A program made the translations under genes and the position numbers. From a virus (lineage: Duplodnaviria; Caudoviricetes): a stretch of DNA of 38,931 bases. Under the pieces are notes generated by a model that was given only the letters and a program-made list of their open reading frames with translations, did no database searches and was not told where the DNA came from. Positions within the stretch are counted from its first letter, which is position 1; each line of letters starts with the position of its first letter. The stretch is from IMG/VR virus record IMGVR_UViG_3300037422_000656, positions 1-38,931 of that record; one strand, given 5' to 3'. Shown here one piece after another: positions 1-29,346 of this stretch.

Positions 1-146
1 GCGCGCTCCTGCTGCGCCTGCTGTTCCAGCAGGCGCGCCTGCGCCTTGGCCTGCTTGTTGGCCGCCGCGCCGCCGGCGATGGTCGAGGCCGCCGACAGCG
101 CCGTGCCGGCCAAGGCGATGGCCGTGCTGATGCCGAAATCCGCCAT
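1..146 (-). CDS. Internal virion/ejection protein (T7 gp14-like), 5' part only, runs off the window
   Basis: Read by hand, not in the ORF track. ATG at 146 with GGAG RBS. Translates MADFGISTAIALAGTALSAASTIAGGAAANKQAKAQARLLEQQAQQER: a Gly/Ala hydrophobic N-terminus then a Q/A-rich helix, typical of podoviral ejection proteins. Position after the tail tube genes fits. Confidence 0.7.
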   Translation of the reverse strand, partial: MADFGISTAIALAGTALSAASTIAGGAAANKQAKAQARLLEQQAQQER

Positions 147-401
147 GTCGGTCTCCGCGCGCGCCGACCCGTCGCGGCGCTAGAGCAACGCCGGTGTCGG
201 TACGCGTCTGCTGTTCAGTTGGTCGGCGTGGATGACTGTCCGTCGGCGCGTTCGCCCGCCCAGCGCCGCTCGCCCGTTTGATCTGGCTGGCGCGGGTGGC
301 GATCCGTCGGGCGCGCCGATGCGCTCCGGCGGCGCGGGCGTCCGTCTTGTCGCGATGACAGGTCGCGCGTCGCGCGACGTCGAGCGGCCTCGGACGTGGT
401 G

Positions 402-1211
402 CTATTGCGTCAGCGCCAGCACCAAGCCCTTGGCCGTGCGGCCGTCGAGGCCGTCGAACCAGCGCAGCAGCGCCGCCGCGTCGTCGTCGGACAGGCGTTC
501 CACGATGCGACGGGCACGGCTATCGAACAGCCCGACGCGCTGCGCCGCCGCCGTACCCCACGACCGCGCCAGCTCGGCGCCCTCCGGGCTGACGGTGAAG
601 CGCGCCAGCGCTTCGTCGGCGGCCGGCTTGGCGTAGCCTGGCTTTCCGGCCGCCAGTTCGGCGAACACGGCGGCGCGCGCCGTCGCGGGTAGCGCGTCGA
701 AGCCGGCGACCAACACCGCCGGATCGGCGATCAGGCGCAGCGCCGACTGCGCCGCGTCCTGCAGGCGCGCGATGTGCGCCACGCCGCCGCCGAGGCGGTC
801 CCAGGTTTCCAGCAGTGCGGCGCCGGCGGCGTCGGCCGCGACCGCGCGGCGCACCGCGTCGGGTGGCGCGGGCGATAGCGAGTCACTCGCCGCCCCGGCG
901 GCCCGCCGGTCGTCGCCGTCGTGGTTGCGATCGGAGTCGCCGTCGGCATCGGCAAGCGCCGGGGGATAGCCGGGCCCGCCGATGTCGCCGCGCAGGATGT
1001 TGCCCGCAGCTTCAGTGCTGCGACGGCCAGCGTTCGCGCCACGTGCATCGGCAACGGTCGCCAGCAGGTCTCGGTACTCGCGCTGCAGCGCCGGGTCGTG
1101 CCAATAGCGCGCCGACTCGCGGCCGGCGATGATGGCCTCGATGGCGGCGATGCGATCGCCGTCGGCGGCGGGCGCGGTGGCGGCGCTCGGCGCGGTGCGA
1201 ACCTCGGTCAT
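402..1211 (-). CDS. Hypothetical protein, scaffold-related (N-terminal copy of the scaffold C-terminal motif)
   Basis: Start trimmed to MTEVRT (ATG 1211), immediately after the upstream gene's stop at 1213. RIAAIEAIIAGRESARYWHDPALQREYRDLL matches the C-terminus of 8241..9173. Confidence 0.7.
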   Translation of the reverse strand: MTEVRTAPSAATAPAADGDRIAAIEAIIAGRESARYWHDPALQREYRDLLATVADARGANAGRRSTEAAGNILRGDIGGPGYPPALADADGDSDRNHDGDDRRAAGAASDSLSPAPPDAVRRAVAADAAGAALLETWDRLGGGVAHIARLQDAAQSALRLIADPAVLVAGFDALPATARAAVFAELAAGKPGYAKPAADEALARFTVSPEGAELARSWGTAAAQRVGLFDSRARRIVERLSDDDAAALLRWFDGLDGRTAKGLVLALTQ

Positions 1212-1212
1212 G

Positions 1213-1695
1213 CTAGGCCACCTTCTGGGGATAGAGATGGCGCAGGTCGCGTTCGGCCAGCGCGACGGTGGCGGCCGGCAGCGACACGGCCTGGCCGTCG
1301 CACTTGCGCTGCACGACATAACCGGTGCCGGCCCAGACGATGCGGTAGCGCTCGTCCTCCATCAGCCGGTCATAGCGCGGCGGGAACGCAGTCAGGCGCG
1401 GCTTGGCCAGCACGACCTTGGCGGCGTCGGCGGCGCCGACCACGGCCTCGGCCATCCAGTCGCGGTCGAAGGCCAGCAGGGTCAGGTGGTCGAGCTCGCG
1501 CAGCCGCGCCGGACTCGCCTGAACCCGGCGCCAGATCGCCGGCTCCTTCAGGTCGTCAGCCGCCAGTCCCCGCGGCAGCCGCACGAAGATCGAGCGGAAG
1601 GCGAATCCTTCGGCGTTAAGGATCACGTTGGCGGGATCGATCGCCGGCTGTCCGGCGCTTTCGATCAGCTCAGGTGTGATGGCGGGCGGTGTCAT
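1213..1695 (-). CDS. Hypothetical protein
   Basis: Start MTPPAI (ATG 1695) with GAGGAG RBS. Globular alpha/beta-looking sequence, packed tightly in the operon. Confidence 0.7.
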   Translation of the reverse strand: MTPPAITPELIESAGQPAIDPANVILNAEGFAFRSIFVRLPRGLAADDLKEPAIWRRVQASPARLRELDHLTLLAFDRDWMAEAVVGAADAAKVVLAKPRLTAFPPRYDRLMEDERYRIVWAGTGYVVQRKCDGQAVSLPAATVALAERDLRHLYPQKVA

Positions 1696-1745
1696 CGATT
1701 CTGCTCCTCGCGTTCTGTCAGCTCTTTCCACCAATGAGAACCCAG

Positions 1746-2012
1746 TCACACCTCGCCGAGCCGGCGCAGCGCGTCACGGATCGCCGAGAGCTTGGCCGAC
1801 TGGTTGTCGATCTCGGCATTGATGCTGTCGCGCAAGGCGATGCGGGCGCGCATTTCGGCATCCTCGGCGCGCAACGCCGCCAGGCGGGCCTCAATCTCGC
1901 GGAGCTCATTGCCCAGCGCCGCCTTGTCCTGCACCGCCCGGGCGATCGCGATCGCCGCCTCGTGTTGCCGGCCCCATGCCTGGACGATCTCGCAGGCCTC
2001 CGTCAGATCCAT
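1746..2012 (-). CDS. Short coiled-coil protein, paralog of 16734..17240
   Basis: AAGGAG RBS before MDLTEACEIVQAWGRQHEAA, which nearly matches MDLSEACQLVQAWGRQHEAA of 16734..17240. Confidence 0.7.
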   Translation of the reverse strand: MDLTEACEIVQAWGRQHEAAIAIARAVQDKAALGNELREIEARLAALRAEDAEMRARIALRDSINAEIDNQSAKLSAIRDALRRLGEV

Positions 2013-2037
2013 CGTCATCTCCTTGTGTCCGTCCATG

Positions 2038-2685
2038 TCACGCGATCGCATCGCTTGCGGCCTGCCCGGTCGACGCTGGCGATGCGGCAACAGACGGAGC
2101 CGGCTCGTCCAGGAGCGCGGCGAGTTCGCCGGCCGTGGCGCGCCGCTCGATCGCGGACCAATCGTCGGCGGCGCTGTAGCCGAACGGCCGCCTCAGCGCG
2201 ATGTGGCCAAACCAGCCCACGCGCGCCGCGACACCGCCAAGCAGCACCATCAGGCGATCACTGAAGCGCGCCTCGACGGCGTGCGGAATCAGCGCCAGGG
2301 GTGCCGGCCGCTCCATCGCCGTGGCGTTCAGGCGGATTAGGTCGGCCGCGCGCTTGGCTTCATCGATGGCCGCGACCAACTCGCGGCAGAGTACCTCGGC
2401 CTTTGCCACCGCCTCCAGCCGCCGACCTTCGGCCGAGCGGATCTCGCGTTGAGCCTCGGCCCGCTGGGCATCGCGCGCAGCCCGCGCGGCGACGCGGCGG
2501 CGATGCAAGGCCACGACCTCGGCGTCGCCCAGGCCCGCTAGCTCAACCTCCGCCGCCTGGATGGGCCGGTTGTCGAATTTGCGGCCGTCGAGCGCCGCGT
2601 TGCCGCGCTCGGCGTATAACGTCTTCAGCCGGCTCTGCACCGAGTCTTTGCAGACGGCTAACACCTGTGTCTCAAGTTCAGGCAT
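2038..2685 (-). CDS. Hypothetical helical/coiled-coil protein
   Basis: AAGGAG RBS, 215-aa ORF in operon orientation, A/E/R-rich helical middle. Confidence 0.7.
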   Translation of the reverse strand: MPELETQVLAVCKDSVQSRLKTLYAERGNAALDGRKFDNRPIQAAEVELAGLGDAEVVALHRRRVAARAARDAQRAEAQREIRSAEGRRLEAVAKAEVLCRELVAAIDEAKRAADLIRLNATAMERPAPLALIPHAVEARFSDRLMVLLGGVAARVGWFGHIALRRPFGYSAADDWSAIERRATAGELAALLDEPAPSVAASPASTGQAASDAIA

Positions 2686-2700: not shown

Positions 2701-3246
2701 TCAGCGTCGTCGTTCAGAATCGGAGTCGGTGGCGTGGCGGCGCCACGCATCCTTTGCGGTTGGCGCGGACGCCGCGTCCGCTCGATTCCCTGCCGCGTCG
2801 CGGCCAGCGCCCACGCACCGCCTCGATGGCCGCCAGACCCAGATGTCGCTGCCGTCCTTGTCGGCGCCAAACCCGAGGCGACGCGCCCAAGCCTCGGCCT
2901 GCGGCCATCGCCGGTCGACGACCAGCGTGACAGCCGGAACGCCGCTTCGCGCCAGATGGCTCAGCACCATGCGCGCCGCCTTGTGGAGCGCGACCGGGAA
3001 ACGGCGCGCTTCGGCTGACGCCTCGAGGAACACCCGCACGCCCGACGACAGGTAGACGGCGCCGCCAATGCCGAGGATCCGCCCGTCGGGCCCCTGTCCG
3101 ACCCAGGCCCGGCAGCGCGCCGGTGGCGTGCGGCCGCAATAAGTGCGGAAATCGGCCATCGTCGCCGGCCGGATTGTCACGCGACGGGCCGCTGGGCCGT
3201 CGGCGCATGGCGGCGTATCGGAAGCGTACGGCGGGACGCGGGCCAT
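2701..3246 (-). CDS. GNAT-like phage protein (T7 gp13 / internal virion protein A-like)
   Basis: Motifs IRPATMAD, DGRILGIGG and WARRLGF are GNAT-like. Lies directly after tail tubular protein B, the usual position for this gene. Confidence 0.7.
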   Translation of the reverse strand: MARVPPYASDTPPCADGPAARRVTIRPATMADFRTYCGRTPPARCRAWVGQGPDGRILGIGGAVYLSSGVRVFLEASAEARRFPVALHKAARMVLSHLARSGVPAVTLVVDRRWPQAEAWARRLGFGADKDGSDIWVWRPSRRCVGAGRDAAGNRADAASAPTAKDAWRRHATDSDSERRR

Positions 3247-3279: not shown

Positions 3280-5985
3280 TCAGCGATGGTCCGACGTCGA
3301 AATGTCGGCGACGACCGCCCGTACCGTGCAGGGCAGCGGTGCCTGTGCTGCCAGACAGAGCCGCGCGTCGTTGTCCCAGTTGCCGGGAAACGCGCTCATG
3401 TCTTCGTCGGCCTGATCGATGACGACGTCATGATCGACGACGGCCCCGTCGCGTACATGCTTCAGCCGGTCCATGACCACGAAGTCGCCGCCGTAGCGGA
3501 GTCCGCGCGGATGCGTCTTGTAGAGCGACAGGCCGACATGATTGATCTTCTTCTTCTGCCCCAGCGCGGTGCCCACGCTGGCGGCATAAGCCATCTTGGC
3601 GCTCTTGTAGCGTGCCTCGTAGGGCAGCCCGGCCACGACGAAGGACGCCGCCGCGGGAATTGTGATCTGCCCGCCAGACACCGTGAAAAGACGCGGCGCA
3701 TCGGTGGCATCGTCCCATGGGCAGACTCCGTCGGCCCAGACCACGACCTGCAAGCCTTCGAGGTGCGACAGCCCGCCGATCGTATCCGTGGCGGCGCCGC
3801 TGTAGACGACGTGGCTGTCGCTCAGCCGCGTGTCCGTCGCGCCTTGCGACTGCGCCCAGCTCGCCAGCCGCTCGACGTAGCGCACGGTCTGGCCGCCAAC
3901 CGTGCGGCGCACGACGTAATAGACCCTGTTCTCCGGTTGACCGGGCAACACGCAGACATCCTCGATGAACCCGGCCGCGCCGCTGGTCGCGATTTCGACG
4001 AAGGGTGAAACGTCTTCGACCGGATTGAAGATCATCAACGCCGCGGTGCCGTCATCACGTACGAAATGCACTCGTGTCTCAGGTTGCCGCTGCGCCGCCA
4101 GCGCCGCGATGCCGGGCTCGCCGACTTCCGGTACCAGGATGTCGGCCTCGCGCGCCTGGTAGTCGGCGGCGTTGGCATCCAGCAGGATCTGGAACAGGCG
4201 CACGCCGCCGGCCTGGACGAAGAAGGCGCGCTGGTCGACCTTGACCGCCGGCAGCCGATCGCTGCCGTTGGTGCCGGCGTCCTTGATACTGAACTGCGTC
4301 GGCGTCAGCGGCTCGTCGAAACTCGAGGAACGGATCGACAGTTCGGCGCCGTCGGTGCCGATCAGTAGGCGCTGCAGGGGCAGCGCCCAGTTGATGTTGT
4401 CGACCGGGCCGCTGCCGATCGTCCGGTTCAACGGGCCGGCGTCGCCTTCGAACTCTTCGTCGAAGCTGTCGTAGGCGTCCGAGACGCTGCCCCAGATGGC
4501 GTTCTTGCCGAACCACCACAGGCGGCCCTCGTAGAACGCCACCGCCGTCGGCCAGCCACGACTATCGGACCACATGCCCTCGCGCCAGTCGTCGGTGAAG
4601 GACGTCGTCGGCATGGGCCGCAGGATCTCAGCCGTCAGCTGGGTCGGCGAGGTATACTGCAGTCCGCGGGCGATCCCGAAGCGACCGCCGCCAGCGTAGC
4701 TCAGCGTGACGGTCGCCACGCCCGACGCATAGCCGCCGGGCCGGAACCCGAGTCGCACCCACATCGCAGTGTTCGCCACCGTCAGGTCGACGGTCGTTGT
4801 TGTGTTGACCGTGTACTGAGAAAAGCCGTTGAAGCCGCTGTCCTCGCCGTCGAAGCTGCGCTCCAAGGTGATGGTTCCCGACCACGAGCCGGCGATGGCG
4901 ACGTTGACCGTGCGTTCCGACGCGGTGTTGCCGAACACGCGGATCACCGCCGTGTAGGTGTCCTCGCGCGCCAAGCCGACTGCGCTGACCTGCGTGTTGG
5001 CGAAGAGGCGGAATAGTGCGCCGGCATGGCTTGGCTTGAAGAACGGCCCGTCGGTCGTCAGCGTCGTCAGGCCGAAGGTCAGCCCCGTCGACGCCATGCG
5101 CACCGCGGCCGTTCGCGCCGGCGTGAACGGCCCGTCGGCCGCCTCGTACAGACACACCGACCACGAATCGTTGTCGCGCCGCTCGATGCGCCGCTGCTGA
5201 TGGCCGGCGCAGGCCACGAACAGCACGTCGGCCGATTGATCCCAGCGCAGCTTCGACAGGTCGGCCGCCACCCACGGCGTCGGCAATTCCAGCGTCCCGG
5301 CTGCCTCCACCTGCACGCTGTCGACATAGCGGTAGGTGTCGTCGCTGGTCTCCAGTTCGACGTGAAAGTTACCGGTCGGCGTGAAGGCGAGCGAGTGCGT
5401 GCCGGTGCGAAGGGTCGTGGTCCGGACGTAGCTGTCGTCGCCGCTGGCCGTGCCGACCCGGCAGGTGACCGGGCCGCGCGCGACCACCACCCGCAAAGCA
5501 TGCGGGATGTTCTGATTGGCGCCGATCACTGTCACGGTCTGGCCGACGACGGCCTTGCCGCCCCGGTTCGGGCAATTCAGCTCGAGGCTGCCGTTGACGT
5601 TGAACGTGGCCGTCGCGCCGCCGCTGAGCGTCGTGCTCCAACCCCCGCCGCCGCTCATGTCGCCATTGGTCACCGACGTGGTGACGGGCGGCCGCGTCAC
5701 GTAGGCGTCGTTCTTGAGCACGCGCATCGTGGTGTCCGTGAACACCAGCATCTGCGCGTCGGCGGTCGCCGCCACGAACGGCGCGCAGCGGGCGATGGCA
5801 TTGTTCTTCGTGGCGCCGATGTATCCCAGGCCCGGCCGCAGGCTCATCGGCCCCAGGACCTGCGGCAGCCAGTTCACGCATTCCTCGGCCGCCAGCCGCA
5901 ATCGCTCGAGATCGACCCGACCCAGCGCCAGCGGGCTGACAATGCCGCGGTTAAAGGCGGCGATGGCCGCATTGGTCTTACCCAT
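3280..5985 (-). CDS. Tail tubular protein B (T7 gp12-like nozzle)
   Basis: 901 aa. N-terminus AFNRGIVSP..GRVDL..RPG, plus QSADVLFV, GWPTAVAFYEGRLWW, LSHLEG..V.VWADG and VAGLPY, all typical of this family. Confidence 0.9.
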   Translation of the reverse strand: MGKTNAAIAAFNRGIVSPLALGRVDLERLRLAAEECVNWLPQVLGPMSLRPGLGYIGATKNNAIARCAPFVAATADAQMLVFTDTTMRVLKNDAYVTRPPVTTSVTNGDMSGGGGWSTTLSGGATATFNVNGSLELNCPNRGGKAVVGQTVTVIGANQNIPHALRVVVARGPVTCRVGTASGDDSYVRTTTLRTGTHSLAFTPTGNFHVELETSDDTYRYVDSVQVEAAGTLELPTPWVAADLSKLRWDQSADVLFVACAGHQQRRIERRDNDSWSVCLYEAADGPFTPARTAAVRMASTGLTFGLTTLTTDGPFFKPSHAGALFRLFANTQVSAVGLAREDTYTAVIRVFGNTASERTVNVAIAGSWSGTITLERSFDGEDSGFNGFSQYTVNTTTTVDLTVANTAMWVRLGFRPGGYASGVATVTLSYAGGGRFGIARGLQYTSPTQLTAEILRPMPTTSFTDDWREGMWSDSRGWPTAVAFYEGRLWWFGKNAIWGSVSDAYDSFDEEFEGDAGPLNRTIGSGPVDNINWALPLQRLLIGTDGAELSIRSSSFDEPLTPTQFSIKDAGTNGSDRLPAVKVDQRAFFVQAGGVRLFQILLDANAADYQAREADILVPEVGEPGIAALAAQRQPETRVHFVRDDGTAALMIFNPVEDVSPFVEIATSGAAGFIEDVCVLPGQPENRVYYVVRRTVGGQTVRYVERLASWAQSQGATDTRLSDSHVVYSGAATDTIGGLSHLEGLQVVVWADGVCPWDDATDAPRLFTVSGGQITIPAAASFVVAGLPYEARYKSAKMAYAASVGTALGQKKKINHVGLSLYKTHPRGLRYGGDFVVMDRLKHVRDGAVVDHDVVIDQADEDMSAFPGNWDNDARLCLAAQAPLPCTVRAVVADISTSDHR

Positions 5986-5987: not shown

Positions 5988-6608
5988 CTACGGCCGGCTC
6001 CGTTCATGGCGTGCCGCGCCGCCCCAGCGCGCCCGCACCCAGCCACCGCGCGGCGGAAACTGCGGCGGCTGGCCGACGGCGTCCTTGACCAGCGCCTCGG
6101 CGCGGCGGCGCTGGCGCAGGCGGTCGAGGTCGGCGAACTGGGCGTTGCGGTGATGGGCCGCCATTTCCGCTGCCAGGTGGGCCTGGACATAGAGCGAGAA
6201 CGATGGCGTCCAACGCGTGGGATCCATGCCCCATGCACCGTCTGATGAGACGTAGCGCACATAGAGCGGATCGACGTTGGCCTTCCAGTACTCGGCCTCG
6301 TCGGCATAGTCCGTGAGCGGAGTGCCGAAGGTCTCGTCAGCACTCAGCGCCGCCGTGCGCAGCCAGTCGTCGGGTTTCTCGAACGCATACTGGAAGCCGA
6401 ACGCCAACGCTACATCGGGATCGCTGCCGAGTTGCACGCTGCGTAGGGCGAAGTTCCAGCTGCCCGCCTCAAGACAGGCACGTACGTGCTCCTCCCATAG
6501 GTCGTCGAGAATGCGCCGCGGCTCGCGACTCTCCGACAGCGACACCAGGCGCGTGTCGCCGAGCAAGCGCAGAGTGCCGTTGTAGACGGCAAGCTTGGTA
6601 GTGCCCAT
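5988..6608 (-). CDS. Tail tubular protein A (T7 gp11-like adaptor)
   Basis: YNGTLRLLG..WNFA..FQYAFEKPDDWLR motifs. Located between capsid and tubular B. Start taken at MGTTKL. Confidence 0.85.
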   Translation of the reverse strand: MGTTKLAVYNGTLRLLGDTRLVSLSESREPRRILDDLWEEHVRACLEAGSWNFALRSVQLGSDPDVALAFGFQYAFEKPDDWLRTAALSADETFGTPLTDYADEAEYWKANVDPLYVRYVSSDGAWGMDPTRWTPSFSLYVQAHLAAEMAAHHRNAQFADLDRLRQRRRAEALVKDAVGQPPQFPPRGGWVRARWGGAARHERSRP

Positions 6609-6668: not shown

Positions 6669-6798
6669 AGCTCCTCACCCTTCGAGACGCATCGCTACGC
6701 GATGCTCCTCAGGGTGAGGAGCTCGTGAGCCCAAGCGTGGGGAGCCGGTGAGCCTCATCCTGAGGAGGCCGCGCAGCGGCCGTCTCGAAGGATGAGGC
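6669..6798. repeat. Paired REP-like palindromes (CCTCAYCC..GGRTGAGG type)
   Basis: Two hairpins in opposite orientation: AGCTCCTCACCCT..AGGGTGAGGAGCT (6669-6723) and GCCTCATCC-TGAGGAG..CGTCTCGAA-GGATGAGGC (6752-6798). Resembles a common alphaproteobacterial intergenic repeat. Confidence 0.8.
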
Positions 6799-6808: not shown

Positions 6809-7087
6809 CTAGTCTGTGTTGGTCGCGCTGCCGATGGTCGTGCCGTCGGCCAGGTTGACTACGGTGCCCGCCACGGTGACGGTATGGCCGCTCCAGATCT
6901 TGGTGCCGCTGGCGTAGACGAAGATGAGATCGCCATCGCGCATGCCGCGGTCGTAGCCGTCGGTGAAATAGCCCGAGGCGTCGACGGCCGCGGCCGCGTC
7001 GGCCGAGGCGTAGACCCAGAGCTTGGCGGAGGCGCCGACGCCGAGGTCGAGCACCATGCGCGGCGGGTTGGTCGTGCTGTAAGCCAT
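6809..7087 (-). CDS. Small capsid-associated/decoration protein
   Basis: Start MAYSTTNPP (ATG 7087) after an AAGGAG RBS overlapping the capsid stop. 92 aa, beta-rich (GYFTDG..GMRDGDLIFV). Confidence 0.75.
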   Translation of the reverse strand: MAYSTTNPPRMVLDLGVGASAKLWVYASADAAAAVDASGYFTDGYDRGMRDGDLIFVYASGTKIWSGHTVTVAGTVVNLADGTTIGSATNTD

Positions 7088-7098: not shown

Positions 7099-7941
7099 TT
7101 ACTGGGCCGCGAAGGCGCTGCCGTCGTGGTTGACCACCACCACGCCGCTGTTCTGCAGCAACTTGGCGCCCATGAAGATGGAGCTGCGTGCCCAGCTCTT
7201 GTCGTGACGCCCGTCGTAGTCGACCAGCGACTTCATGTTGGTGGTGTCGGCGGCGTGGCCGATCGCCTTGACGTTCCAGAACAGGCATTTCTCGGCTGAT
7301 GTGCCCAGCCCCGTCAGCCCGGTGTGCACGACGAAGTCGATGCCGTACCAGCGGAACTTCTCCATCGTCTGGTCGTTGGTCGCCTTCTCGAACGGCTCGG
7401 TGGCGCGATAGTCGGCGGAGCCGAACTCCGGGGTCTGCATCAGGTAGGCGTGGAACGCCGGCGTGATGGCGGCGCACAGCCGGCCGCCGCCGGCATTGTT
7501 GTTGCCCAGGATGGTGCGGGCATGGGCGACCAGGCCGAGCGAGCCGGGCTGGGCCGTACCGGTGTCGTTGCTGCCGGTCTCCAGCTCGGTGATGATCTGC
7601 TGGTCGATCTTGCGATTGATCACCGCCATGGTGGTTTCCTGCATGATCTGCCGCTGATTGCCCTGGCTGGCGAAGATGTTGACCGACGTCTTCTCGACGA
7701 CGTCGTGCCACTCGCTCAAGGTGCAGGTCAGCTGGTTCAGATCGTCGGCCCGCCCCGGGATGTTGCCGTTGACGCCGCGCGTGACGGCGTTGGCGCCGCC
7801 CGAGCCGGCGACGAGGAACACCGCGATGTTCCCCTTGATCTCGGCCTTGCAGCTGACCATGTCGCGCAGCGCCGACTGGCGCCGCTCGAAGGACTGGATG
7901 TGCTCTTGCAGGTACTGGGTTTGGAATGCCGTGTCGGCCAT
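7099..7941 (-). CDS. Major capsid protein
   Basis: MADTAFQTQYLQEHIQSFERRQSALR start with GGAG RBS. AVINRKIDQQII and C-terminal GAKLLQNSGVV. Follows the scaffold gene. Confidence 0.85.
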   Translation of the reverse strand: MADTAFQTQYLQEHIQSFERRQSALRDMVSCKAEIKGNIAVFLVAGSGGANAVTRGVNGNIPGRADDLNQLTCTLSEWHDVVEKTSVNIFASQGNQRQIMQETTMAVINRKIDQQIITELETGSNDTGTAQPGSLGLVAHARTILGNNNAGGGRLCAAITPAFHAYLMQTPEFGSADYRATEPFEKATNDQTMEKFRWYGIDFVVHTGLTGLGTSAEKCLFWNVKAIGHAADTTNMKSLVDYDGRHDKSWARSSIFMGAKLLQNSGVVVVNHDGSAFAAQ

Positions 7942-8240
7942 CTCATTCTCCATGAAGAGGCGCCGACGACCGTCGGGAGCCGCGCGGCGCGCGCCGGGAG
8001 CCCGCCCTGTACGGGTCGGGGGCGGCGCACGTCCGCTGCGGGGCGTCGTTCAGTCGGCAGGTGGGTGCCGTCAGCGCCGGGGTCCGTCGCCGCCCGTCGG
8101 GGCGAAGACCGAGGAGCCGGACATCAGGCGAGAGTCATGACCGGCGTCGCGCCGGCACGAATGTCATGGCGCGTCGGGACCACGTCTGCCGACGCATTTC
8201 CGCCGGCACGCCGCGCGGTGGAAATCGCCGCTGGAGCGGC

Positions 8241-9173: not shown

Positions 9174-9487
9174 CCTGGATCCTTCGCATTGACGGCCGCA
9201 CGCACGGTGTCCAGGCGCAGCTTGCTGAGCTTGACGATTTGCAAGCCCACGAACCGTTTGCCTTCGGCGAACGCCGTGGCGTGTGACTCGCCGCGCCAGC
9301 TGAGCCCATACGCGTCAGCCGCGGTCTCCACGATCCAGCGCAATGCGTGCCGCTGCTGATCCGCATCGGCCACGCCGATCGCCAGCGCCTGGATCGCCGC
9401 GACGTCGGCGTCGTCGTACGGCGCCGGTCGCGCCGGATCGCGGTGGCCGACGGGTACGGGTGCGGTCGAAGGGGTGGAGTGAGTCAC
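9170..9487 (-). CDS. Small conserved podoviral protein (Bbp19-like)
   Basis: TAFAEGKRFVGLQI motif and position between portal and scaffold. Confidence 0.75.
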   Translation of the reverse strand: MTHSTPSTAPVPVGHRDPARPAPYDDADVAAIQALAIGVADADQQRHALRWIVETAADAYGLSWRGESHATAFAEGKRFVGLQIVKLSKLRLDTVRAAVNAKDPG

Positions 9488-9531: not shown

Positions 9532-9743
9532 GTCGTCCTGAGCGCAGCGAAGGACTCCGCGGTCATTGGTCCGGTCACTGTCGCCTGACATGACGGGTCG
9601 GACCGCGTCGCTCCAGCGACGCAGCGGCGCGAAGCGCCGACTCATGACCATGAGCGCCGCTGGAGCGGCGCGGTTCCAGCCGTTGTCGGTGCCGTCAGTC
9701 ACTGCCTCACCACCGCAGGGTCCTTCGCTGCGCTCAGGACGAC
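9532..9743. repeat. MITE/REP-like element with 24-bp terminal inverted repeats
   Basis: GTCGTCCTGAGCGCAGCGAAGGAC (9532-9555) and its exact reverse complement (9720-9743), between the portal stop and the next gene. Confidence 0.85.
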
Positions 9744-11410: not shown

Positions 11411-11420
11411 GGCCATGCCC

Positions 11421-15386: not shown

Positions 15387-15389
15387 GCA

Positions 15390-19323: not shown

Positions 19324-19545
19324 ATGAAGAACTGGGTTATCCGGGTTGAAGGACCCGATTTTGTCGCCGATCTCTTCATCTCGGACTATCTCGTGGTCAA
19401 TGCGGAGCCCCGCCTCGCGTTCACCATCGGCCAGGATTGGTCCGACGTGCAACGCGACCTGCTCGACCGCGGCTGGTCGATCGAAACCGTCACTCCCCCT
19501 CCGCCTCGTCGGGCACCAGCAAGACGAGGCCGCTCGCGGTCATGA
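19324..19545 (+). CDS. Small hypothetical protein convergent with the ART gene (candidate immunity/antitoxin)
   Basis: AGGAG RBS, MKNWVIRVEGPDFVADLF.., paralog at 18713. Confidence 0.6.
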   Translation: MKNWVIRVEGPDFVADLFISDYLVVNAEPRLAFTIGQDWSDVQRDLLDRGWSIETVTPPPPRRAPARRGRSRS

Positions 19546-22134: not shown

Positions 22135-22240
22135 CGCCGTCTCCAACCGGTTGATCGCGTGCCATAGGCCGCTTGATGGGCGTGCGCGCTCAAGCTGGTG
22201 TGTCGCAGCTTCCGCCACACCCATCACCGCCCTGCCGCGC

Positions 22241-22481
22241 GCACCGGGCGGTCGGCGAACGGCCCGAACTTGGGCGTCACGCTGGCGCGGCCGTTCAGCA
22301 GGCCGGTCCAGGAAGTGCGGACAACGAAGCGCTCGTTGTCCGCCAGCGAATGGGCGCCGCGCGTGGCCATCTTGGCGCTCCCCGGGCGTTGGCGAAGGCG
22401 GCCGACATCACCAGCCGGCCGGTGGGGAGAATCACGCCCAGCGCGACCTGCTCGGCGCCGGTGTCGGTCCAGGTGCCGTCC
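22241..22481 (-). pseudogene. Fragments: 3' end of the 17612..18058 gene and 5' ~40 codons of the 17240..17599 gene
   Basis: DGTWTDTGAEQVALGVILPTGRLVMSAAFANA with the stop lost, then MATRGAHSLADNERFVVRTSWTGLLNG..KFGPFADR, truncated. Confidence 0.8.
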
Positions 22482-22638: not shown

Positions 22639-23475
22639 TCACTGCGACAGCGGGTGTTGCGGCGTGTCGCGCAGGCTGATGTGGTCCGCATTCCAGCGTT
22701 TGAACTTCAACGATTGTGCGAAGGTCAACGCCTCATCCGCGATGAGCTGACAAAACAACAGCTCAATCTCTCGCCATACGTTTGTCGCACTGTCGAAACA
22801 GCGACTGCGAAACGCCGATTCAATCTGAGTGGCAGCCTCATATGCGGCGGCCTCAGCCGCTGTTGGATCGCTCGCCGTGTCGTACACAAGATATATTCCC
22901 AACGTGTATGGATCATCCGGCACGTTGTGCGATCGCTCCACACCTTCATCGACTTCGAAGAAGACGGCAAGCAACAGGTGGCCCGATCGGGTTAGGATTT
23001 TTTGCAAGCGGCCCGCAAGTCCAGTTTGAGCCAGGCGGTTTTCGAATTCATCGGGAAAGGCCGTCCGCCGGTAGCGTGCCGCGAGCCAGAGTTGAAGTCT
23101 GGTTCGATCGTCATCGAGCAGTGAAACGTCGTCCCGAGGCTGGTGGTTCGCCAATTCGGCCTTGGCCACCAGCCGCTTTCGACTGGCAACAAGCTCGATC
23201 CAAGTGACGTTTCCGCCCTCTTGAACTGCCAAGTGCAGCCTGCGCGGGTTCTTGGCGTGCGTGAAGTTGCCGTCTGATCGGTCAATGCGCCGTCCTGCGA
23301 TCACCTCTACATCAGGTTCGACTTCCGGCTCCTGGGCCAAATCGCAGTCATGGGAGATGACCATCACCACGAGGTCATTGGATTGGCCGAACTCGATCAA
23401 GCCGACGGCAGCTGCGGCGGAATCGTCCAGCATATGGCCTTGGCGCCACGGCGTAGACCGATTCCAGCCGACCAT
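22639..23475 (-). CDS. Hypothetical protein with WRQG and VISHDCDL motifs (candidate effector)
   Basis: 278-aa ORF, lower GC than the flanks, third gene of a tightly coupled operon. Confidence 0.75.
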   Translation of the reverse strand: MVGWNRSTPWRQGHMLDDSAAAAVGLIEFGQSNDLVVMVISHDCDLAQEPEVEPDVEVIAGRRIDRSDGNFTHAKNPRRLHLAVQEGGNVTWIELVASRKRLVAKAELANHQPRDDVSLLDDDRTRLQLWLAARYRRTAFPDEFENRLAQTGLAGRLQKILTRSGHLLLAVFFEVDEGVERSHNVPDDPYTLGIYLVYDTASDPTAAEAAAYEAATQIESAFRSRCFDSATNVWREIELLFCQLIADEALTFAQSLKFKRWNADHISLRDTPQHPLSQ

Positions 23476-23481
23476 CGCGGA

Positions 23482-24108
23482 TCACGACCTCTCATCAAGC
23501 ATTGGGACGCCCGCGTCATCATATTGATCGCGGGCTGGCCGCTCTCGATCCGCCCGCCGACTGTCCAGCTCTGCGCGCTGCACCAGCTCTCGCCTGACCA
23601 TATCGACAAGCTGCCGGGCAGCGACTTCGGCGGAACCGCCGTCACGGACAATCTCGAAGAGGTTCTTTCCGAACGCGATAGGTCGGCGCAGCATATGCGC
23701 GGTGGTCGTCAGGCCTTCGCGTGCGAAGACATCCGCCGCTCGCGCCAGGTCCACCAGGCGGGTGGCGTTGTCCGCAGCGATCGGTTTGCCCGCCTGCCAG
23801 TCGTAAATGGCTTGACGGGAAACACCAAGCGCCTTCGCAAGATCTGTTATCGCGGGCTGAAGGACGCTGCGAACTCGCGCCAGATTCTCCGCTGGCGTAG
23901 GAACGGAGGCGTCCTCGGGCGAGCGGGCTGTCGGGTCATAGTCTAAGTTGCGGTATCCTCTGATCCCGCGGGCTTTGAGGTATTCGTTGGTCGCCTCCCC
24001 GCCAGTCCCGGTCTCGTACCCGATAAGCGAGAGTGACATAGAGCGAACGATGTACGGGGTCGTTCGGGGTGAATCAGCCAGTGCAGTTGCGGGCATGGTC
24101 ACCTCCAT
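23482..24108 (-). CDS. XRE-type helix-turn-helix protein
   Basis: ITDLAKALGVSRQAIYDWQAG HTH. Start may be 24096 (GGAGG RBS). Confidence 0.8.
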   Translation of the reverse strand: MEVTMPATALADSPRTTPYIVRSMSLSLIGYETGTGGEATNEYLKARGIRGYRNLDYDPTARSPEDASVPTPAENLARVRSVLQPAITDLAKALGVSRQAIYDWQAGKPIAADNATRLVDLARAADVFAREGLTTTAHMLRRPIAFGKNLFEIVRDGGSAEVAARQLVDMVRRELVQRAELDSRRADRERPARDQYDDAGVPMLDERS

Positions 24109-24911
24109 ACGTTGAGGGCATGATCAGTGACAGTGGCGTGGAACGCGTCGACCACGGCATCATGGATAACGTCGAGGCGACGCCTCACGCGGGACATATC
24201 CAACGGCTCACGCTGATCGGTCCACCCATCCGTGTCCAACCTCGCATGGGGACCCTCAAGATTCCGAAATCGCTCGGCAACTCTCAGCGTCATGGGCGTC
24301 AGATCGGGTGGGAACGCTACCTTGCCTTTTTCGATACTTGCTCTTGAGCGGACATACGCGTCCTCTGTCTTGAGCAATGTCTCGGAAAACGCATGGATCA
24401 CCGCGGCGCCGAGCTTTCCGGTCAAACCCATGACCCCCGGCGCGAGGTATTCGGCGAGCTCCTCATTAGTCCTGGGAAAGACAGTGTCAAGATATCGCAG
24501 TCCGATTCGATCTACGTAAGTCAGATCGACGGCCTCGTGCACCGCTTCGAGTCCCTTCAAGAAGTCCGCCGAGAATGTCTCAAACACATCGTACTCGGTC
24601 GTTTGGAACGACAGGGCGTTCTGGTTGAGAACGAATCCAGATGTGAGCTCCATATTCGAGAACACGTACCGAGTTTCTTGAACAACAGGCATGTGCGCGG
24701 CCACTGCCTCGGTCGCGGCGGCGGGCGCGAGGTTCGCGGCGGCGGGGGCGAGGTTCAACGTCGTGAGAATCCCCTTCTGAAAGTCCGGGTAGCCATGTTT
24801 GCGCATCCGCTCCTGAATTTGAGGAGCGTAAGAGTCCAGGGCCAGGATCTGATTGAAGCGAGCCTGGACAATTGCGAAGTACACTGGCGCGAGCGCCATT
24901 TTCTGGCCCAT
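24099..24911 (-). CDS. TIGR04255-family protein
   Basis: APVYFAIVQARF, FQTTEYDVFETF, RIGLRYLD and LDTD motifs match my recollection of this family. Start MGQK after GAGGG. Confidence 0.75.
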   Translation of the reverse strand: MGQKMALAPVYFAIVQARFNQILALDSYAPQIQERMRKHGYPDFQKGILTTLNLAPAAANLAPAAATEAVAAHMPVVQETRYVFSNMELTSGFVLNQNALSFQTTEYDVFETFSADFLKGLEAVHEAVDLTYVDRIGLRYLDTVFPRTNEELAEYLAPGVMGLTGKLGAAVIHAFSETLLKTEDAYVRSRASIEKGKVAFPPDLTPMTLRVAERFRNLEGPHARLDTDGWTDQREPLDMSRVRRRLDVIHDAVVDAFHATVTDHALNVWR

Positions 24912-25151
24912 GCCGACCCTCATTGACTGACAAGTCACTTTACAGCCTTACAGATCACTTGACAGCTTGAGAAAGGTCCGTTTTCGAGAATCTGGCCCTC
25001 ATCGGCAGCCAGACAATAGACATACGAATTCTCATTATCTAATTGTTTTTAATAGATATTTTCCATGCCGTCATGCCGAACCGCATGTCAGCACGCGCGT
25101 CGACGTCGCGAAACCAGCGACTTGGCGCTGCGCGTGGCCATCTCGGCGCTC

Positions 25152-25590
25152 CTAGGCGTTGGCGAAGGCGGCCGACATCACCAGCCGGCCGGTGGGCAGG
25201 ATGACGCCCAGCGCCACCTGCTCGGTGCCGGTGTCGGTCCAGGTGCCGTCCCAGTCGCCGTCGGCCTCGGTGCTGGAGTGGAACAGCTTCTTGGCGACCA
25301 CCGCCAGCAGCGCGCCATCGGTGCCGATAGCGACGCCGGTGCTGCCTCCGGTCGTGGCGTAGGCCGTCGCGGTGGCGTCGGTGAACACCGCCAGCCAGAA
25401 GGGCGTGACGACATCGACGTCGCCGCCGTCGACCTTCTTGAACCGCAGGGTGATGGTGTGCACGTTGGCCACTTCGGCGCCGATCGCGATCGACACGTCG
25501 GCCGCCGGGTGGGTGATCTCCTTGCCGCTGGCGACCGGATCGCCCTTGCGCGACAGGCCGAGCAGCCTTCCGTGCGGCGGTATCAGGGAG
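25152..25590 (-). pseudogene. Second copy of the 17612..18058 gene, start codon lost
   Basis: Near-identical translation (HGRLLGLSRKG..MSAAFANA), but the MPDS start is replaced by unrelated sequence. Confidence 0.7.
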
Positions 25591-25737
25591 ATCCGCTCCG
25601 AGTGGCGAAGCCGAGCGACGATGAAGGGCGGCGTTCGCCACGCGGTTCCGCCGCGCCGTCCCGACTCCGATCGGAGCGGACCGCCGCCGCGCGCGACGTG
25701 GCGGCCGCGCGGTTGAGCGATCAGAGAGCGGCGGCGT

Positions 25738-26376
25738 CTAGGCTTTGGAGCGCCCCCCACGGTCCGCGGTGGGGACGTGCGCCGAATCTTCCGCGCCTTT
25801 GGCCTTGGACCGCGCCTCTTGCTCCGCGGCTCGGGCGCGCGCCGCCTCTTCCTCGGCCTTGGCGGCATCGGCCTTGGCGAGCAGGAAAGCCACCCGGCGC
25901 GCGACCTCGATCTCGTCGAGTGGCGCCGGCGGAAGGACGACGCCGTTGCGGCCGGTGTGCTCGTGCCGCCAGGTGTCGCGCCACAGATCGGGCCGGCGGT
26001 TCCTGAGCCAGAAGATGCAGGCGGTCGGGTGCGCCGGCACATGCACCTTGAACTTGGTGTGGACCGGCGCCGCGCCGTTGACGGGCACGACGACCCGCTC
26101 GGCTTCGTAGTCGTAGCCCATGGCGCGCCGGTACAGCGACTCGGTCACCTGGGTGTCGGCCCACAGCCGGCCCTGGTTCAGCGCCGCGGCGAAATCGGGA
26201 TAGCGACGCATCCATTTCTGGATCGCCGCCCGGGTGACGCCGAAGAAATCCGCCATCTGCTCCAGGGTGGCGCCCAGGCGGCCGAGCCGTTCGACGTTGG
26301 GCACGAACTCAGGCTTGTAGACCTTGACGCCCGACGGCTTGCCGTGGGGCGACTTCGTGGCGGGTGCACGCGGCAT
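25738..26376 (-). CDS. terS: Terminase small subunit
   Basis: YKPEF..LGATLEQMADFFGVTRAAIQKW HTH, VTESLYRRAMGY, ACIFWLRNRRPDLWRD. GGAG RBS. Confidence 0.85.
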   Translation of the reverse strand: MPRAPATKSPHGKPSGVKVYKPEFVPNVERLGRLGATLEQMADFFGVTRAAIQKWMRRYPDFAAALNQGRLWADTQVTESLYRRAMGYDYEAERVVVPVNGAAPVHTKFKVHVPAHPTACIFWLRNRRPDLWRDTWRHEHTGRNGVVLPPAPLDEIEVARRVAFLLAKADAAKAEEEAARARAAEQEARSKAKGAEDSAHVPTADRGGRSKA

Positions 26377-26397: not shown

Positions 26398-26476
26398 CGC
26401 CCGGCGCGGAGGGTCCGGCCGGGCGCAGTTCGACGTTTATGATAAACAGCTTACGCAAGGTGCTCCCGATAGTCAA
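26398..26476 (-). promoter_or_regulatory. Late promoter B: sigma70 promoter plus downstream hairpin, upstream of terS
   Basis: -35 TTGACT (26476-26471), 17-nt spacer, -10 TAAGCT (26453-26448), hairpin 26425-26398. Homologous to 18223..18301. Confidence 0.75.
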
Positions 26477-26746
26477 GAACAAAAAATAAAACATGATGTT
26501 GAATAAAAATACATACGTGTAATCTATATATTGTGTATTTGAATATCACAGTTTCAGTATTTGAAACCTTCAGTTCTTATTAAGGTATATTTGTAACGAT
26601 TTGAAAGGACAACATGTCGCGGCGCCGGTCAGACACCCGTTCGCGGCCCGCCGCCGCTCGCACGACGCGGCAGGCGGTCGAACGCGCCTCTGCCGGCGAC
26701 GTACAGGCGCCTCAGAGCCCGACCGAAAACCGCCCGCCCCTGTCGC

Positions 26747-26851
26747 CTTCATGGTGAGCTTGTCGAACCTTGAAGGCCTCGCACCGGCATTGGTGCGGCG
26801 CTTCATGGTTCGTCCCTCGACAAGCTCGGGATGAAGAGGCTCACCATGAAG
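26747..26851. repeat. REP-like palindromic element (GAGCTTGTCGAA type)
   Basis: Terminal inverted repeats CTTCATGGTGAGC / GCTCACCATGAAG with internal GAGCTTGTCGA / TCGACAAGCTC. Confidence 0.7.
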
Positions 26852-26878
26852 CGGTTTTCCGCATGCTCGGTCAGACCC

Positions 26879-27496
26879 TCAGCGCAGCCGCCAATGCTCG
26901 ACCAGCCGGTCGAGCGCCAGGCGCAACGTGGTCAGCCCCTCGACCGAGGCCCGCTTGCCGCGGTAGAGGCCGTTGGCCTGCGCCCAGTCGGCGGCGCTCT
27001 GCTCCATGACGCAGACCGCGACCACCACGGCGGCCAGCTTGCCCGACTTGCCCAGCACCTGCATGGCCTCGAGCCAGTCGCCGCGCGCCCCGTCGCGCGC
27101 CGCCAGGTAATCCTCGGCCGTGCCGGCGCTGCGCGGCAGGTCGGTGTAGCGCATGGTGACCCGCGGCATCAGTCCGGCGCGGAACGCCAGCGCCGCCAGC
27201 TTGTCGGCGGCGCGCCACTGCCCCTCGTCGAGATCGCCGCGGCTGCGGTAGCGGTCGATCAGGCGCTGGTCGGCGACCCGCTTGACCACCGCCTCGATGC
27301 CATCGACCGAGGTCATGTCGTCGGCCAGCTTGTGGTGACGCGCCAGTTCCGGCGTGCCACGATCGCCGTCCTTGATGGCGGTCAGCTTCAGGCGGCGCTG
27401 CCGCCGTTGGCGCGCCCGCTGCGCCCGCGGATCCTGGCGCGCACCGATACCGATGGCGCCCTTTTGCTGTTCAATGATGCGGGTCATGGCAGGCAT
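26879..27496 (-). CDS. DUF6456-family putative antiterminator/activator (GafZ-like, GafA C-terminus-like)
   Basis: DRYRSRGDLDEGQWRAADKL, VVVAVCV.EQS and C-terminal LRLALDRLVEHW pattern. Directly upstream of the late promoter and terS. Confidence 0.75.
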   Translation of the reverse strand: MPAMTRIIEQQKGAIGIGARQDPRAQRARQRRQRRLKLTAIKDGDRGTPELARHHKLADDMTSVDGIEAVVKRVADQRLIDRYRSRGDLDEGQWRAADKLAALAFRAGLMPRVTMRYTDLPRSAGTAEDYLAARDGARGDWLEAMQVLGKSGKLAAVVVAVCVMEQSAADWAQANGLYRGKRASVEGLTTLRLALDRLVEHWRLR

Positions 27497-27682
27497 CCCT
27501 CGGTGTGGCGGTGGCGACGCGTCATGTCGCCGGCAGCCGGCGGCGACCGGCCGTCCACGGACCGGGCAGACCGCACGATGCTGCGCCGGCTTGTCGGTGA
27601 TCGCATGTCGGCTCCCTTCGGACGGACGCGGCCGACGCGCGGCACAGCAAAATCGGCAGCGGCGCTGGTTGAATAACAGGCG

Positions 27683-27714
27683 ATAGTAAATATATTTTTG
27701 CCATAGTCAATGGC
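27683..27714 (-). promoter_or_regulatory. Promoter of the DUF6456 gene with an overlapping palindrome (candidate operator)
   Basis: -35 TTGACT (27710-27705), 16-nt spacer, -10 TACTAT (27688-27683). Palindrome GCCAT-N5-ATGGC (27700-27714) covers the -35. Confidence 0.55.
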
Positions 27715-27820
27715 TAACATGCCGCTTCCCAAAGCGATATGGCGTGATTACCATTGCGTTGTGGATAACGGGCTGCCGCCGGCCGATGCGGGCGGCCCCG
27801 AGACAGCAGAGGCCTCCGCC

Positions 27821-28486
27821 ATGACCGACAACAACGAGTCCGTCCGCGCCCTCATCGACCGCCTGCTGCGCGAGCGGGGCATCACCTTCGCCGAGGCGTC
27901 GCGGCGCATGGGCAAGAACGAGACCTACCTGTTCGGCTTCATCCGCCGCGGCAAGCCGCGCAAACTGGCCGAGGACGCCCGCATCGCATTGGCTCAGATG
28001 CTTGAGCTGCCGGACGACAAGGTGCTGAAGACCGGGGGCGGGCCACCGACGCCCCTGCCACCATCCAACGTGCGGCCGGCCAGCGGCAGCACGAGCTATG
28101 GTCAGCGCGACTTACCGATCCGCGGTCGCGCCCAGGGCGGGCCGGACGGTGTCATCCACCTCGGCGACGGCACGATCGACTGGACGTGGCGCAGCCCGGA
28201 ACTGGCCAGCGTGCGCGACGCCTACGCTCTGTATGTCGACGGCGATTCAATGTCCGACTTCAATCTGCCGCACGGCAGCATCGTGTTCGTGCATCCGCAT
28301 CGGCGACCCCAGCCCGGCCGGATCTGCGTGCTGGTGCTGAACTCCGGCGCCGCCTACGTGAAACGGCTGGACCGCGTCACCCAGTCAAAGGTCGTGGTCT
28401 CGCAAAGCAATCCGCCGCGCTCGCTGGAATTCCCGGCCGCGGAAGTCTCCGATCTGCATATGGTGACCAGTGCCGTGTTTGCGTGA
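27821..28486 (+). CDS. HTH + S24 peptidase repressor (CI/LexA-like, RogA-like architecture)
   Basis: N-terminal HTH (FAEASRRMGKNETYL..RGKPRKL), catalytic Ser in VDGDSM and Lys in YVKRL. Start MTDNNE after AGAGG. Confidence 0.88.
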   Translation: MTDNNESVRALIDRLLRERGITFAEASRRMGKNETYLFGFIRRGKPRKLAEDARIALAQMLELPDDKVLKTGGGPPTPLPPSNVRPASGSTSYGQRDLPIRGRAQGGPDGVIHLGDGTIDWTWRSPELASVRDAYALYVDGDSMSDFNLPHGSIVFVHPHRRPQPGRICVLVLNSGAAYVKRLDRVTQSKVVVSQSNPPRSLEFPAAEVSDLHMVTSAVFA

Positions 28487-28530
28487 AACGATACGCCGCG
28501 CATTTCTCCACAGCCATGGCACGACGCCTA

Positions 28531-28559
28531 TTGACACGGTGGGGCATAAATACTATAAA
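28531..28559 (+). promoter_or_regulatory. Near-consensus sigma70 promoter downstream of the repressor
   Basis: TTGACA (28531-28536), 17 nt, TATAAA (28554-28559). Confidence 0.65.
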
Positions 28560-28589
28560 CAATGCCATTACATTACCGGACGCGATGGC

Positions 28590-29057
28590 ATGAACTGCGG
28601 GTCACCAGTGGCATGGACAACGCTTTGCCAGGAGGTACGCCGCCCCTGGTGCCCGGCTTGGCGGGGCGTCCTGCCGACGCGCGGCGCGCCGGCGCCAACC
28701 TCGGCGCCGCTCGCGATTGCCATCTGCGCTCTGTTTGGTGCGCCTCGGACGTTCGACACCGAAGCGGCGGCCGCGACGTGGCGGGCGCTTGGCCCGCTGG
28801 CGCTCAATGCCGCCGGGCTATGGCGCGATCTGGCCTATGACCGCGAGATGCTGCGCGCCCATCTGGATTGTGTCCGCCACTGGCGCGGACGAGGCGACCA
28901 GCGCCAGGCCGCGATGGCTGCCAGCGAGCTTGCCCGTCGTTGGACGCGCTATCGGCGCGACATGCGACGGTTGGCCGACGCTGTCGACGCGGTGCGCGCG
29001 GCGCTCATGCCGCGACCGGGCCAACGCGCGGCGTCGCGACACGAAGTGGCCGCCTGA
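28590..29057 (+). CDS. Hypothetical helical protein, start uncertain
   Basis: ORF behind a strong promoter. The C-terminal half reads like an amphipathic helical protein ending EVAA. The 5' part is ambiguous. Confidence 0.4.
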   Translation: MNCGSPVAWTTLCQEVRRPWCPAWRGVLPTRGAPAPTSAPLAIAICALFGAPRTFDTEAAAATWRALGPLALNAAGLWRDLAYDREMLRAHLDCVRHWRGRGDQRQAAMAASELARRWTRYRRDMRRLADAVDAVRAALMPRPGQRAASRHEVAA

Positions 29058-29346
29058 CAGCGACCGGCCTTTTGCCCGCGCATCTCGGGGATTGCCGTCA
29101 GCATCGGCCATGGCGTGCGCTGCTCGATGTCTGGCGCGGCGGTTTCGGCACGGCAGACGTTGGCGCGGATCGCGCGGCCGACGGATTGAAGCGGCTCCAC
29201 GACCGGGTTCGACACGCCGGGTTTCGGCCAGCCCAGGACTTGCAGCAAACGTCACGCACAAGACGCGCGCATGGCTGCCAACGTCGCGATGTGCCTCGAG
29301 GCGCATCGGCACACAGCTCGAATTCAGCAACGCGGGCCAGAAAGCG

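Follow-up and report, generated by a model that had tools for sequence, protein, structure and literature searches.

We analysed a 38,931-base contig (hereafter, the window), which is the complete IMG/VR record IMGVR_UViG_3300037422_000656 and is classed as a virus. The rightmost 9.6 kb of the window are host genes. The rest is an element that appears to be a podophage operon without replication genes, vertically kept under selection, and likely one capture that is separate from and younger than the podoviral clusters found across its class. With middling confidence, we favor the reading that, once induced, it makes particles that would be filled with chromosomal DNA packaged in place. Its DUF6456 protein (79%) and its capsid (91%) both have their closest named relatives in a Vineibacter metagenome-assembled genome (MAG), and the host of the element is Vineibacter.

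Our comparison set for the genus is six genomes (G125-G130), within a set of 130 genomes from the family; placement was by host genes. Two of the six (G127 and G128) carry the element, and with the window these are the three carriers that we compared. Relative to the window, the G128 copies are 88% (repressor), 79% (DUF6456), 90% (capsid), and 88% (portal) identical, with host genes at 86-94%; the G127 copies are 87% (capsid), 84% (portal), and 76% (nozzle) identical, with host genes at 76-90%. Synonymous distances (dS) are similarly host-like. Between the window and G128, core virion, repressor, and DUF6456 genes are at 0.29-0.63 and host genes at 0.33-0.67; between the window and G127, element genes are at 0.32-0.75 and host genes at 0.30-0.78.

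The window and G128 are sister taxa in the host tree (support 100/100), and a four-gene host tree gave (G127,(G128,(G125,((G126,G129),G130)))), in which the position of G125 is weakly supported (54.5/64). The capsid tree (a quick maximum-likelihood, or ML, tree) and the TerL tree are both (G127,(window,G128)), which matches the host tree. A host tree with the carriers as one clade was rejected (approximately unbiased test, p = 6e-8). The simplest reading would be a single acquisition near the base of the genus, with one or two losses. Vertical inheritance with co-diversification, as expected of gene transfer agents (GTAs; PMC9662315), is what these three carriers show in both dS and branching.

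The element genes have also evolved under purifying selection. ML estimates of omega (dN/dS) for the capsid, adaptor, nozzle, and portal genes are 0.06-0.08 (window versus G128) or 0.07-0.13 (window versus G127). TerL is at 0.15-0.18, DUF6456 at 0.22, and the repressor at 0.09. For comparison, host genes are at 0.03-0.08 and free phages at 0.04-0.08 (twelve gene comparisons from four pairs). An omega of 1 was rejected for all 16 element genes tested (twice the log-likelihood difference, 19-497, with the transition/transversion ratio kappa on a coarse grid). We used the ML values in place of Nei-Gojobori (NG86) values, which are inflated by GC bias. An earlier note on this DNA, made from the sequence alone, had proposed that the element is retained by its host and that synteny, dN/dS, and capsid phylogeny would be informative. 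The host-congruent branching and the low omega of the capsid and portal agree with this proposal, as do the insertion site and the short control region that the window shares with G128.

Composition points the same way. The structural genes had been described as being as GC-rich as the host genes, and we found that GC at third codon positions (GC3) is 0.81-0.94 for ten core element genes and 0.84-0.93 for five host genes. (An inserted TIGR04255 cassette and two genes of the nearest phage are lower, at 0.67-0.69.) The palindromes that interrupt the structural genes are indeed of host type: all three palindromes inside the element (6673..6797, 9532..9743, and 26710..26880) are REP-like (repetitive extragenic palindromic) and belong to genome-wide repeats that have dozens of copies in G128. 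Another REP-like palindrome lies among the window's host genes, between the radical SAM and hydantoinase B genes (34600-34746).

At the right edge of the element is a host gene, tRNA-Val(GAC) (29347..29421, minus strand), and in relatives this tRNA adjoins the same host gene. In G125, G126, and G130, a block with gabD-like and lactamase-rhodanese genes follows this tRNA within 1-9 kb, and these genomes show the empty site. The far end of the element in G128 runs through a gp14-like gene, a 212-amino-acid (aa) MuF_C remnant, a fibre gene, a few small genes, an endolysin, and a holin-sized gene, and then enters the host gabD-like block; no integrase or replication gene was matched there. The G128 contigs do not span the tRNA, and it is this far-end host block that places the two elements at the same site. 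The earlier note had suggested looking beyond the window's left end for integrase, replication, and lysis genes. G128 supplies fibre, lysis genes, and a host block without an integrase, but the window's own left end is just the contig end, which falls inside the gp14-like gene. Contigs from two DNA runs extend just 166 and 450 bases beyond it. A search for the missing part among viral contigs gave one locus with the G128 fibre (65% over 117 aa) and no match with the gp15-like protein of G127; a protein search with the latter gave two matches, itself and one partial, which does not show absence. We also looked for an att copy of the 3' end of the tRNA, as had been proposed. Neither the window nor five relative loci have a second copy of its last 12-25 bases.

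Between the repressor and the tRNA, the five candidate open reading frames (ORFs) had no family match and no match to an integrase (Pfam, PHROGs). One small ORF (28692..29057, plus strand, start uncertain) is 57% identical over 108 aa to a G128 ORF. This fits the original description of one small ORF and no integrase.

Free relatives of the element are known. G133 is a complete 54-kb phage with terminal repeats, and it has the same late module and DUF6456 gene. The shared order in G133- and G132-type podophages is TerS, DUF6456, Y, TerL, portal, scaffold, capsid, gp11, gp12, and gp14. G132 is a fragment, and it is closer to the element than G133 is (54% for DUF6456, 71% for gene Y). The element's capsid nests among free-phage capsids (SH-like approximate likelihood ratio test, 99, in the quick ML tree). 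In G133, however, the 7.6 kb before DUF6456 hold cI, cro, a methylase gene, and some ten further ORFs; genes of 651 and 1,792 aa follow gp14, and the phage also has an integrase. The element has no cro, integrase, or att in any of the parts seen, and both the window and G128 lack cro and the early rightward operon that would separate cI from the late regulator. With 7.6 kb in this interval, including cro, G133 shows the ancestral state, and the short interval in the element is a deletion.

The control region itself is compact. A cI-type repressor (27821..28486, plus strand; helix-turn-helix, or HTH, and S24 domains, with catalytic Ser and Lys motifs; Pfam, PHROGs, and motif check) diverges from the DUF6456 gene (26879..27496, minus strand; PF20057, 32.6 bits with a cut-off of 26.3). 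The 324 bp between them (27497..27820), first estimated at about 320 bp, contain three sigma-70-like sites, where 0.5 would be expected; the corresponding gap in G128 is 363 bp. We found no conserved ORF and no GafY-like gene in the 324-bp gap. Because the repressors of the window and G128 both keep the Ser and Lys motifs of S24, damage induction is likely.

After the DUF6456 gene is a late-promoter-like motif (26398..26476, minus strand), with a -35 element, 17 bases, a -10 element, and then a GC hairpin. The motif occurs six times in three genomes, twice in the window, three times in G128, and once in G127, and it is copied before rearranged blocks. The second copy in the window, also with a hairpin, is at 18223..18301 (minus strand). 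A consensus promoter scan did not list this motif. By analogy with what is described for GafZ and BrrG (PMC11150451, 10.1101/2024.11.20.624540), we infer that it may act as a Q-type promoter, and the DUF6456 protein is predicted to be a Q-like late antiterminator. The AlphaFold model of the DUF6456 protein (predicted local distance difference test score of 71) had no Foldseek match in PDB at E 0.001. Matches to PF20057 are also found in Caulobacter and in ordinary phages. Since DUF6456 is at the late-control position in G133, G132, and the prophage in G034 (where it comes after the DnaB helicase), it is an ordinary phage late regulator. DUF6456 is the family of the GTA master regulators, but its presence by itself does not mark a GTA.

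Given these observations, we propose that the late operon of a temperate podophage lost cro, its replication genes, and att, and has since been passed down as part of the Vineibacter chromosome, maintained by purifying selection. After DNA damage, the cI-type repressor would cleave itself with the aid of RecA. This would allow transcription of the divergent DUF6456 gene, whose product would act as a Q-like antiterminator at the repeated late promoter, with expression of the head, tail, and lysis genes to follow. As the element has no means of excision or replication, the terminase would work on the chromosome where it stands; packaging would probably start from a pac site near terS, because TerS keeps its DNA-binding end, and headfuls would run through the operon into host genes. 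Lysis would free short-tailed particles carrying host DNA. As to whether the head would be too small for its own genes, a GTA trait (PMC9662315), the element is at least 29 kb, and its relative G133 packages 54 kb. In two freshwater metagenomes, contig depth over the element is about the same as over its flank, which is a weak sign of no amplification; contig joints in these data had one short side and were left out. A search for RNA data sets that cover 5300-13200 of the window listed none. The element would thus be a lateral-transduction-like packager en route to a GTA, and it is a candidate for an independent route to a GTA.

Several observations weigh against this proposal. First, the distribution is patchy, which the earlier note had named as a sign of an ordinary prophage: four of the six genus genomes (G125, G126, G129, and G130, whose completeness was not reported) have no match to the capsid or to element DNA, repeats aside. 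In the sister genus, one of seven genomes has a weak capsid match, which belongs to a different prophage. Across the family, PF19821 capsids are in 11 of 130 genomes (and in none of the other 119), and several of these are in full prophages. Second, the absence of an integrase at either end is a composite of the window and G128, which are two species. Third, the repressor and DUF6456 were not found in G127, which is an incomplete MAG that also lacks rpoB and dnaK. Fourth, the cleavage-site region of the repressor is not a plain Ala-Gly match. Fifth, the duplications, relic, and inserted cassettes of the window look like decay, and low omega can be inherited from an earlier life as a phage.

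The small terminase subunit is another difficulty. The window's TerS (25738..26376, minus strand; 212 aa, phrog_309) keeps an N-terminal DNA-binding region, as had been noticed from the start; the protein can be aligned with phage TerS and, across the HTH region, with the G127 copy. The known GTA TerS proteins are described as lacking the DNA-binding end (PMC11841831), and the element's TerS does not have that form. Its form argues for a pac start of packaging. Also, TerS is just 43-49% alike among the carriers, and the sole TerS match in G128 is a stand-alone TerS-like gene with a long low-complexity tail (L152, 5700-6788), among host metabolic genes.

The ejection genes differ among the carriers as well. 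We identified 34 viral capsid loci, and in 18 of the 20 with DNA past the nozzle gene, large genes at the gp15/gp16 positions follow gp14. In G128, the gp15/gp16-like ejection genes are lost. G127 seems to keep a 595-aa gp15-like gene and the first part of a gp16-like gene, both on the short contig C328, whose link to the element is a 52% gp14 match, its GC content, and the presence of a single PF19821 capsid in G127. (We had considered that all carriers keep gp14 and lose gp15/gp16, and dropped this idea because C328 has both.) In accounts of T7, gp14 is the outer-membrane pore, while gp15 and gp16 form the tunnel and the inner-membrane pore and are needed by podophages for infection (PMC8954989). 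Given these roles, and because gp15/gp16 are lost, G128 particles could at most reach the periplasm. Uptake of RcGTA DNA from the periplasm relies on competence proteins of the recipient.

A first rival is slow decay, in which the element is a cryptic defective prophage that was fixed long ago and no longer makes working particles. The low omega would then be a trace of past selection, of selection against misfolded products that are toxic, or of use by a helper phage from time to time. We consider this unlikely, if still a serious rival. It would explain why the element is missing from most of the genus, why G128 has lost ejection genes and had its TerS displaced, why the switch was not found in G127, and why the window has duplications, a relic, and inserts. 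It would also fit the host-type genes between the structural genes of G127: the late promoter there is preceded by about 9 kb of mostly host-type genes, and six further ORFs of the ABC substrate-binding type lie between TerL and portal (the three that were scanned are all PF04392). But the core virion frames remain open in three species at host-level synonymous divergence, with omega like that of free phages, and the rearranged blocks retain a copy of the late promoter.

A domesticated particle with another job, such as killing neighbors, acting as a decoy, or delivering protein, is improbable. Its heads might be empty or hold little DNA, which would suit the retention of head, tail, gp14, fibre, and lysis genes but not gp15/gp16 in G128, as well as the variable accessory genes and the ART-PolyVal-like gene inside the operon. 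Against this, TerL and the portal have been retained with low omega and intact motifs, and there are even two copies of TerL. Least probable of all is an ordinary or recently active temperate podophage family with separate insertions in each species and an integrase and replication genes beyond the part seen: the patchy distribution, the site at a tRNA edge, the classification of the record as a virus, and the retained ejection genes and unplaced insertion site of G127 would fit, but the window and G128 share a site, the deletion between cI and DUF6456, and a host-level synonymous distance, the far end in G128 has no integrase, replication gene, or att copy, and the element has host-like GC3 and contains host repeats.

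On the minus strand, from right to left, Pfam and PHROGs identify DUF6456, TerS, TerL, a second TerL, portal, a Bbp19-like protein, scaffold, and capsid, followed by tail tubular proteins A and B, a small internal virion protein, and the gp14-like gene. This is the T7/BPP-1-type head and short-tail gene set that the earlier note reported. It is not simply intact, however, as TerL is present twice, there are a relic and an inserted cassette, and gp14 is cut. (All coordinates in this and the next two paragraphs are on the minus strand unless noted.) The portal, a T7-type head-tail connector, is at 9752..11443 (PF12236, E 6e-63) and is followed by the Bbp19-like protein (9170..9487, weak PF25181). 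The scaffold protein (8241..9173, phrog_3742) is assigned by position and by synteny in viral loci. Next are the major capsid protein (7099..7953, PF19821 and phrog_3437) and a small capsid-associated protein (6809..7087, phrog_18004; 85-87% in G127 and G128), whose position suggests a cement-like role. The tail consists of tail tubular protein A (5988..6608, gp11-like adaptor, phrog_394) and tail tubular protein B (3280..5985, gp12-like nozzle, phrog_376, E 2e-153). A small internal-virion-type protein at the T7 gp13 position (2701..3246, phrog_308) is 76% identical in G128 and 67% in G127. The gp14-like small ejection protein (3..146, N-terminal part) is cut by the contig end; it has a weak match to PF24072, a match to phrog_418, and 88% identity to the G128 copy over 40 aa.

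Four other proteins lie near the left end. One protein of unknown family (402..1211) opens with a copy of the scaffold's C-terminal motif, and its G127 counterpart is matched by scaffold residues 268-308. An atlas search gave no match over 0.9 and no family for it; as it is common to G127, it could affect head assembly or size. An unknown protein (1213..1695) is kept in G127 (76% aa identity, omega 0.26) and matches phrog_26742 weakly; another (2038..2685) is common to G127 and G128 (53-57% aa identity). Between them is a short duplicate of the 16734-17240 gene (1746..2015; 80% nucleotide identity over 130 bp), and G127 has one too.

The next genes lie between portal and TerS. The two full copies of TerL, 20563..22227 (copy 1; PHROGs) and 11624..13252 (copy 2; phrog_979), are 88% identical in nucleotides, and the motif check found both intact. 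Gene X in its first copy, with the start of Y (25114..25601), is 91% identical in nucleotides to the second copy, which is part of the three small conserved genes Z, Y, and X (16734..18061). X and Y are 87-93% identical in the carriers, and all three genes precede TerL in free phages too. A relic of the X/Y duplicate (22241..22481) was found by self-alignment of the window, and a foreign, low-GC cassette of three genes (22639..24938; TIGR04255, an HTH protein, and an unknown protein, by GC and family search) is inserted into the duplicate. The cassette was unmatched in G127 and G128. Besides these duplicated small genes, the duplicated promoter, the relic, and the cassette, there is an ART-PolyVal-like gene (19490..20515; PF18760 below the cut-off), which is intact in the window and broken in G128. 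Five accessory genes (13185..16647) are also in G128 and partly in the phage G132; PF22237 is found in 15390-16190, and the genes probably serve in virion decoration or adhesion. G128 has a second copy of a four-gene accessory block (L151), so a different block is duplicated there than in the window. Two copies of a short plus-strand stretch (18730-18935 and 19332-19537) lie in a lower-GC region, in G128 too (L136, 4349-4878), and have no family match. In G127, three small genes just before the fibre (L184, 2-1203) look immunity-protein-like by eye and have no Pfam match.

Similar clusters are widespread. Among 401 genomes drawn across the class, 111 have PF19821 capsids. We examined 20 of these 111, chosen for strong matches on long contigs, and scanned 100 selected proteins. 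One locus is a prophage with a primase and a gp15-like gene; the others have portal, capsid, and tail genes among host-type genes, and 7 loci have a divergent S24 repressor. In 16 of the 18 loci that have a nozzle gene, this gene is followed by small genes and then by fibre-like, terminase, or host genes (of the other two, one is cut and one is the prophage). The element shares with this class-wide cluster the layout of a divergent S24 repressor, small regulator genes, portal, scaffold, capsid, gp11, gp12, gp14-like gene, fibre, and lysis genes, with no replication genes. But its capsid is distantly related and falls in a separate clade (quick ML tree), its site is tRNA-Val rather than lysS, and it is much younger and still rearranging. 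In the 19 class-wide loci (L262-L280), the regulator position is taken by DUF6362 in L263 and by unnamed families in the others, lysS lies next to the cluster in L267 and L274, and GTA_holin_3TM is found in L270 and L273; clusters of this kind also occur in genomes of 0.9-1.3 Mb.

Other host-flanked clusters were seen too. G011, a complete Reyranellaceae chromosome from the same family, has a minimal podoviral cluster of the class-wide layout (L138 6619 to L139 7583), with an S24 repressor, a small ORF, DUF6456, TerS, TerL, portal, capsid, tail, a gp14-like gene, DUF6127, and lysozyme, and with host-type genes mixed in; its proteins are about 30% alike to those of the window. A third group (L020, L202, and L212) has host genes before TerS, a head and short tail, and a gp14-like gene followed by a fibre or host gene, with no large ejection genes. 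L202 (4101-20797) sits on a 1.24-Mb contig. In our literature search, which did not reach most subscription papers or any supplements, no paper was listed that describes a GTA-like podoviral cluster for Alphaproteobacteria.

Because the GTAs whose genetics are known are old, how a prophage becomes a GTA has mostly been guessed. Here, a free ancestor type (G133 and G132), three host-fixed descendants in different states, and an empty site can be compared side by side. If particles are made, then one deletion that wires the repressor to the late regulator suffices to tame a podophage, and the order in which replication, ejection proteins, and packaging specificity are lost becomes testable. More tentatively, the element might be a second case of podophage taming, independent and much more recent, convergent on the switch-head-short-tail design of the old alphaproteobacterial cluster and caught midway: a damage-inducible packager of the host chromosome, intermediate between a laterally transducing prophage and a GTA. 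Possible signs of being midway, which we read just as cautiously, are a basal carrier with the full ejection set, a sister species with gp14 only, and a TerS that is being swapped.

Among known systems, the circuit of CcGTA and RcGTA (RogA, GafYZ, and GafA) is one of the closest. There too, an HTH-S24 repressor controls a late regulator of the DUF6456 family, replication genes are absent, and inheritance is vertical; GafZ is described as a Q-like antiterminator that acts at the cluster promoter (PMC11150451, PMC9638019, PMC9632790). The earlier claim that the element uses the same regulatory logic as RogA-GafYZ holds for the pairing of HTH-S24 with DUF6456, but otherwise it is an analogy only. 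RogA is described as lacking the S24 catalytic residues (PMC9632790), whereas the element's repressor keeps the Ser/Lys pair; it has no GafY-like partner; and DUF6456 is ordinary in phages. Also, the virion genes of the element are podoviral (T7-type portal and tail tubular proteins), not siphoviral, which places it outside Rhodogtaviriformidae; its TerS keeps the DNA-binding end; and it is confined to part of one genus. The BaGTA of Bartonella is similar in having a phage-derived late operon, a Q-like antiterminator, and a sigma-70 late promoter with a leader, as described in 10.1101/2024.11.20.624540. By comparison with that description, no run-off replication module was seen in the element. 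The particle of the Desulfovibrio Dd1 GTA, which is from another bacterial class, is short-tailed. Its TerS is described as lacking the DNA-binding domain (PMC11841831), and this comparison is also by description only. We set aside the endosymbiont GTA clusters, whose published description includes distal tail, hub, and megatron parts (PMC9254644). Overall, the element does not belong with RcGTA, RogA, or the GTA form of TerS, and it appears GTA-like in its inheritance and in the layout of its control.

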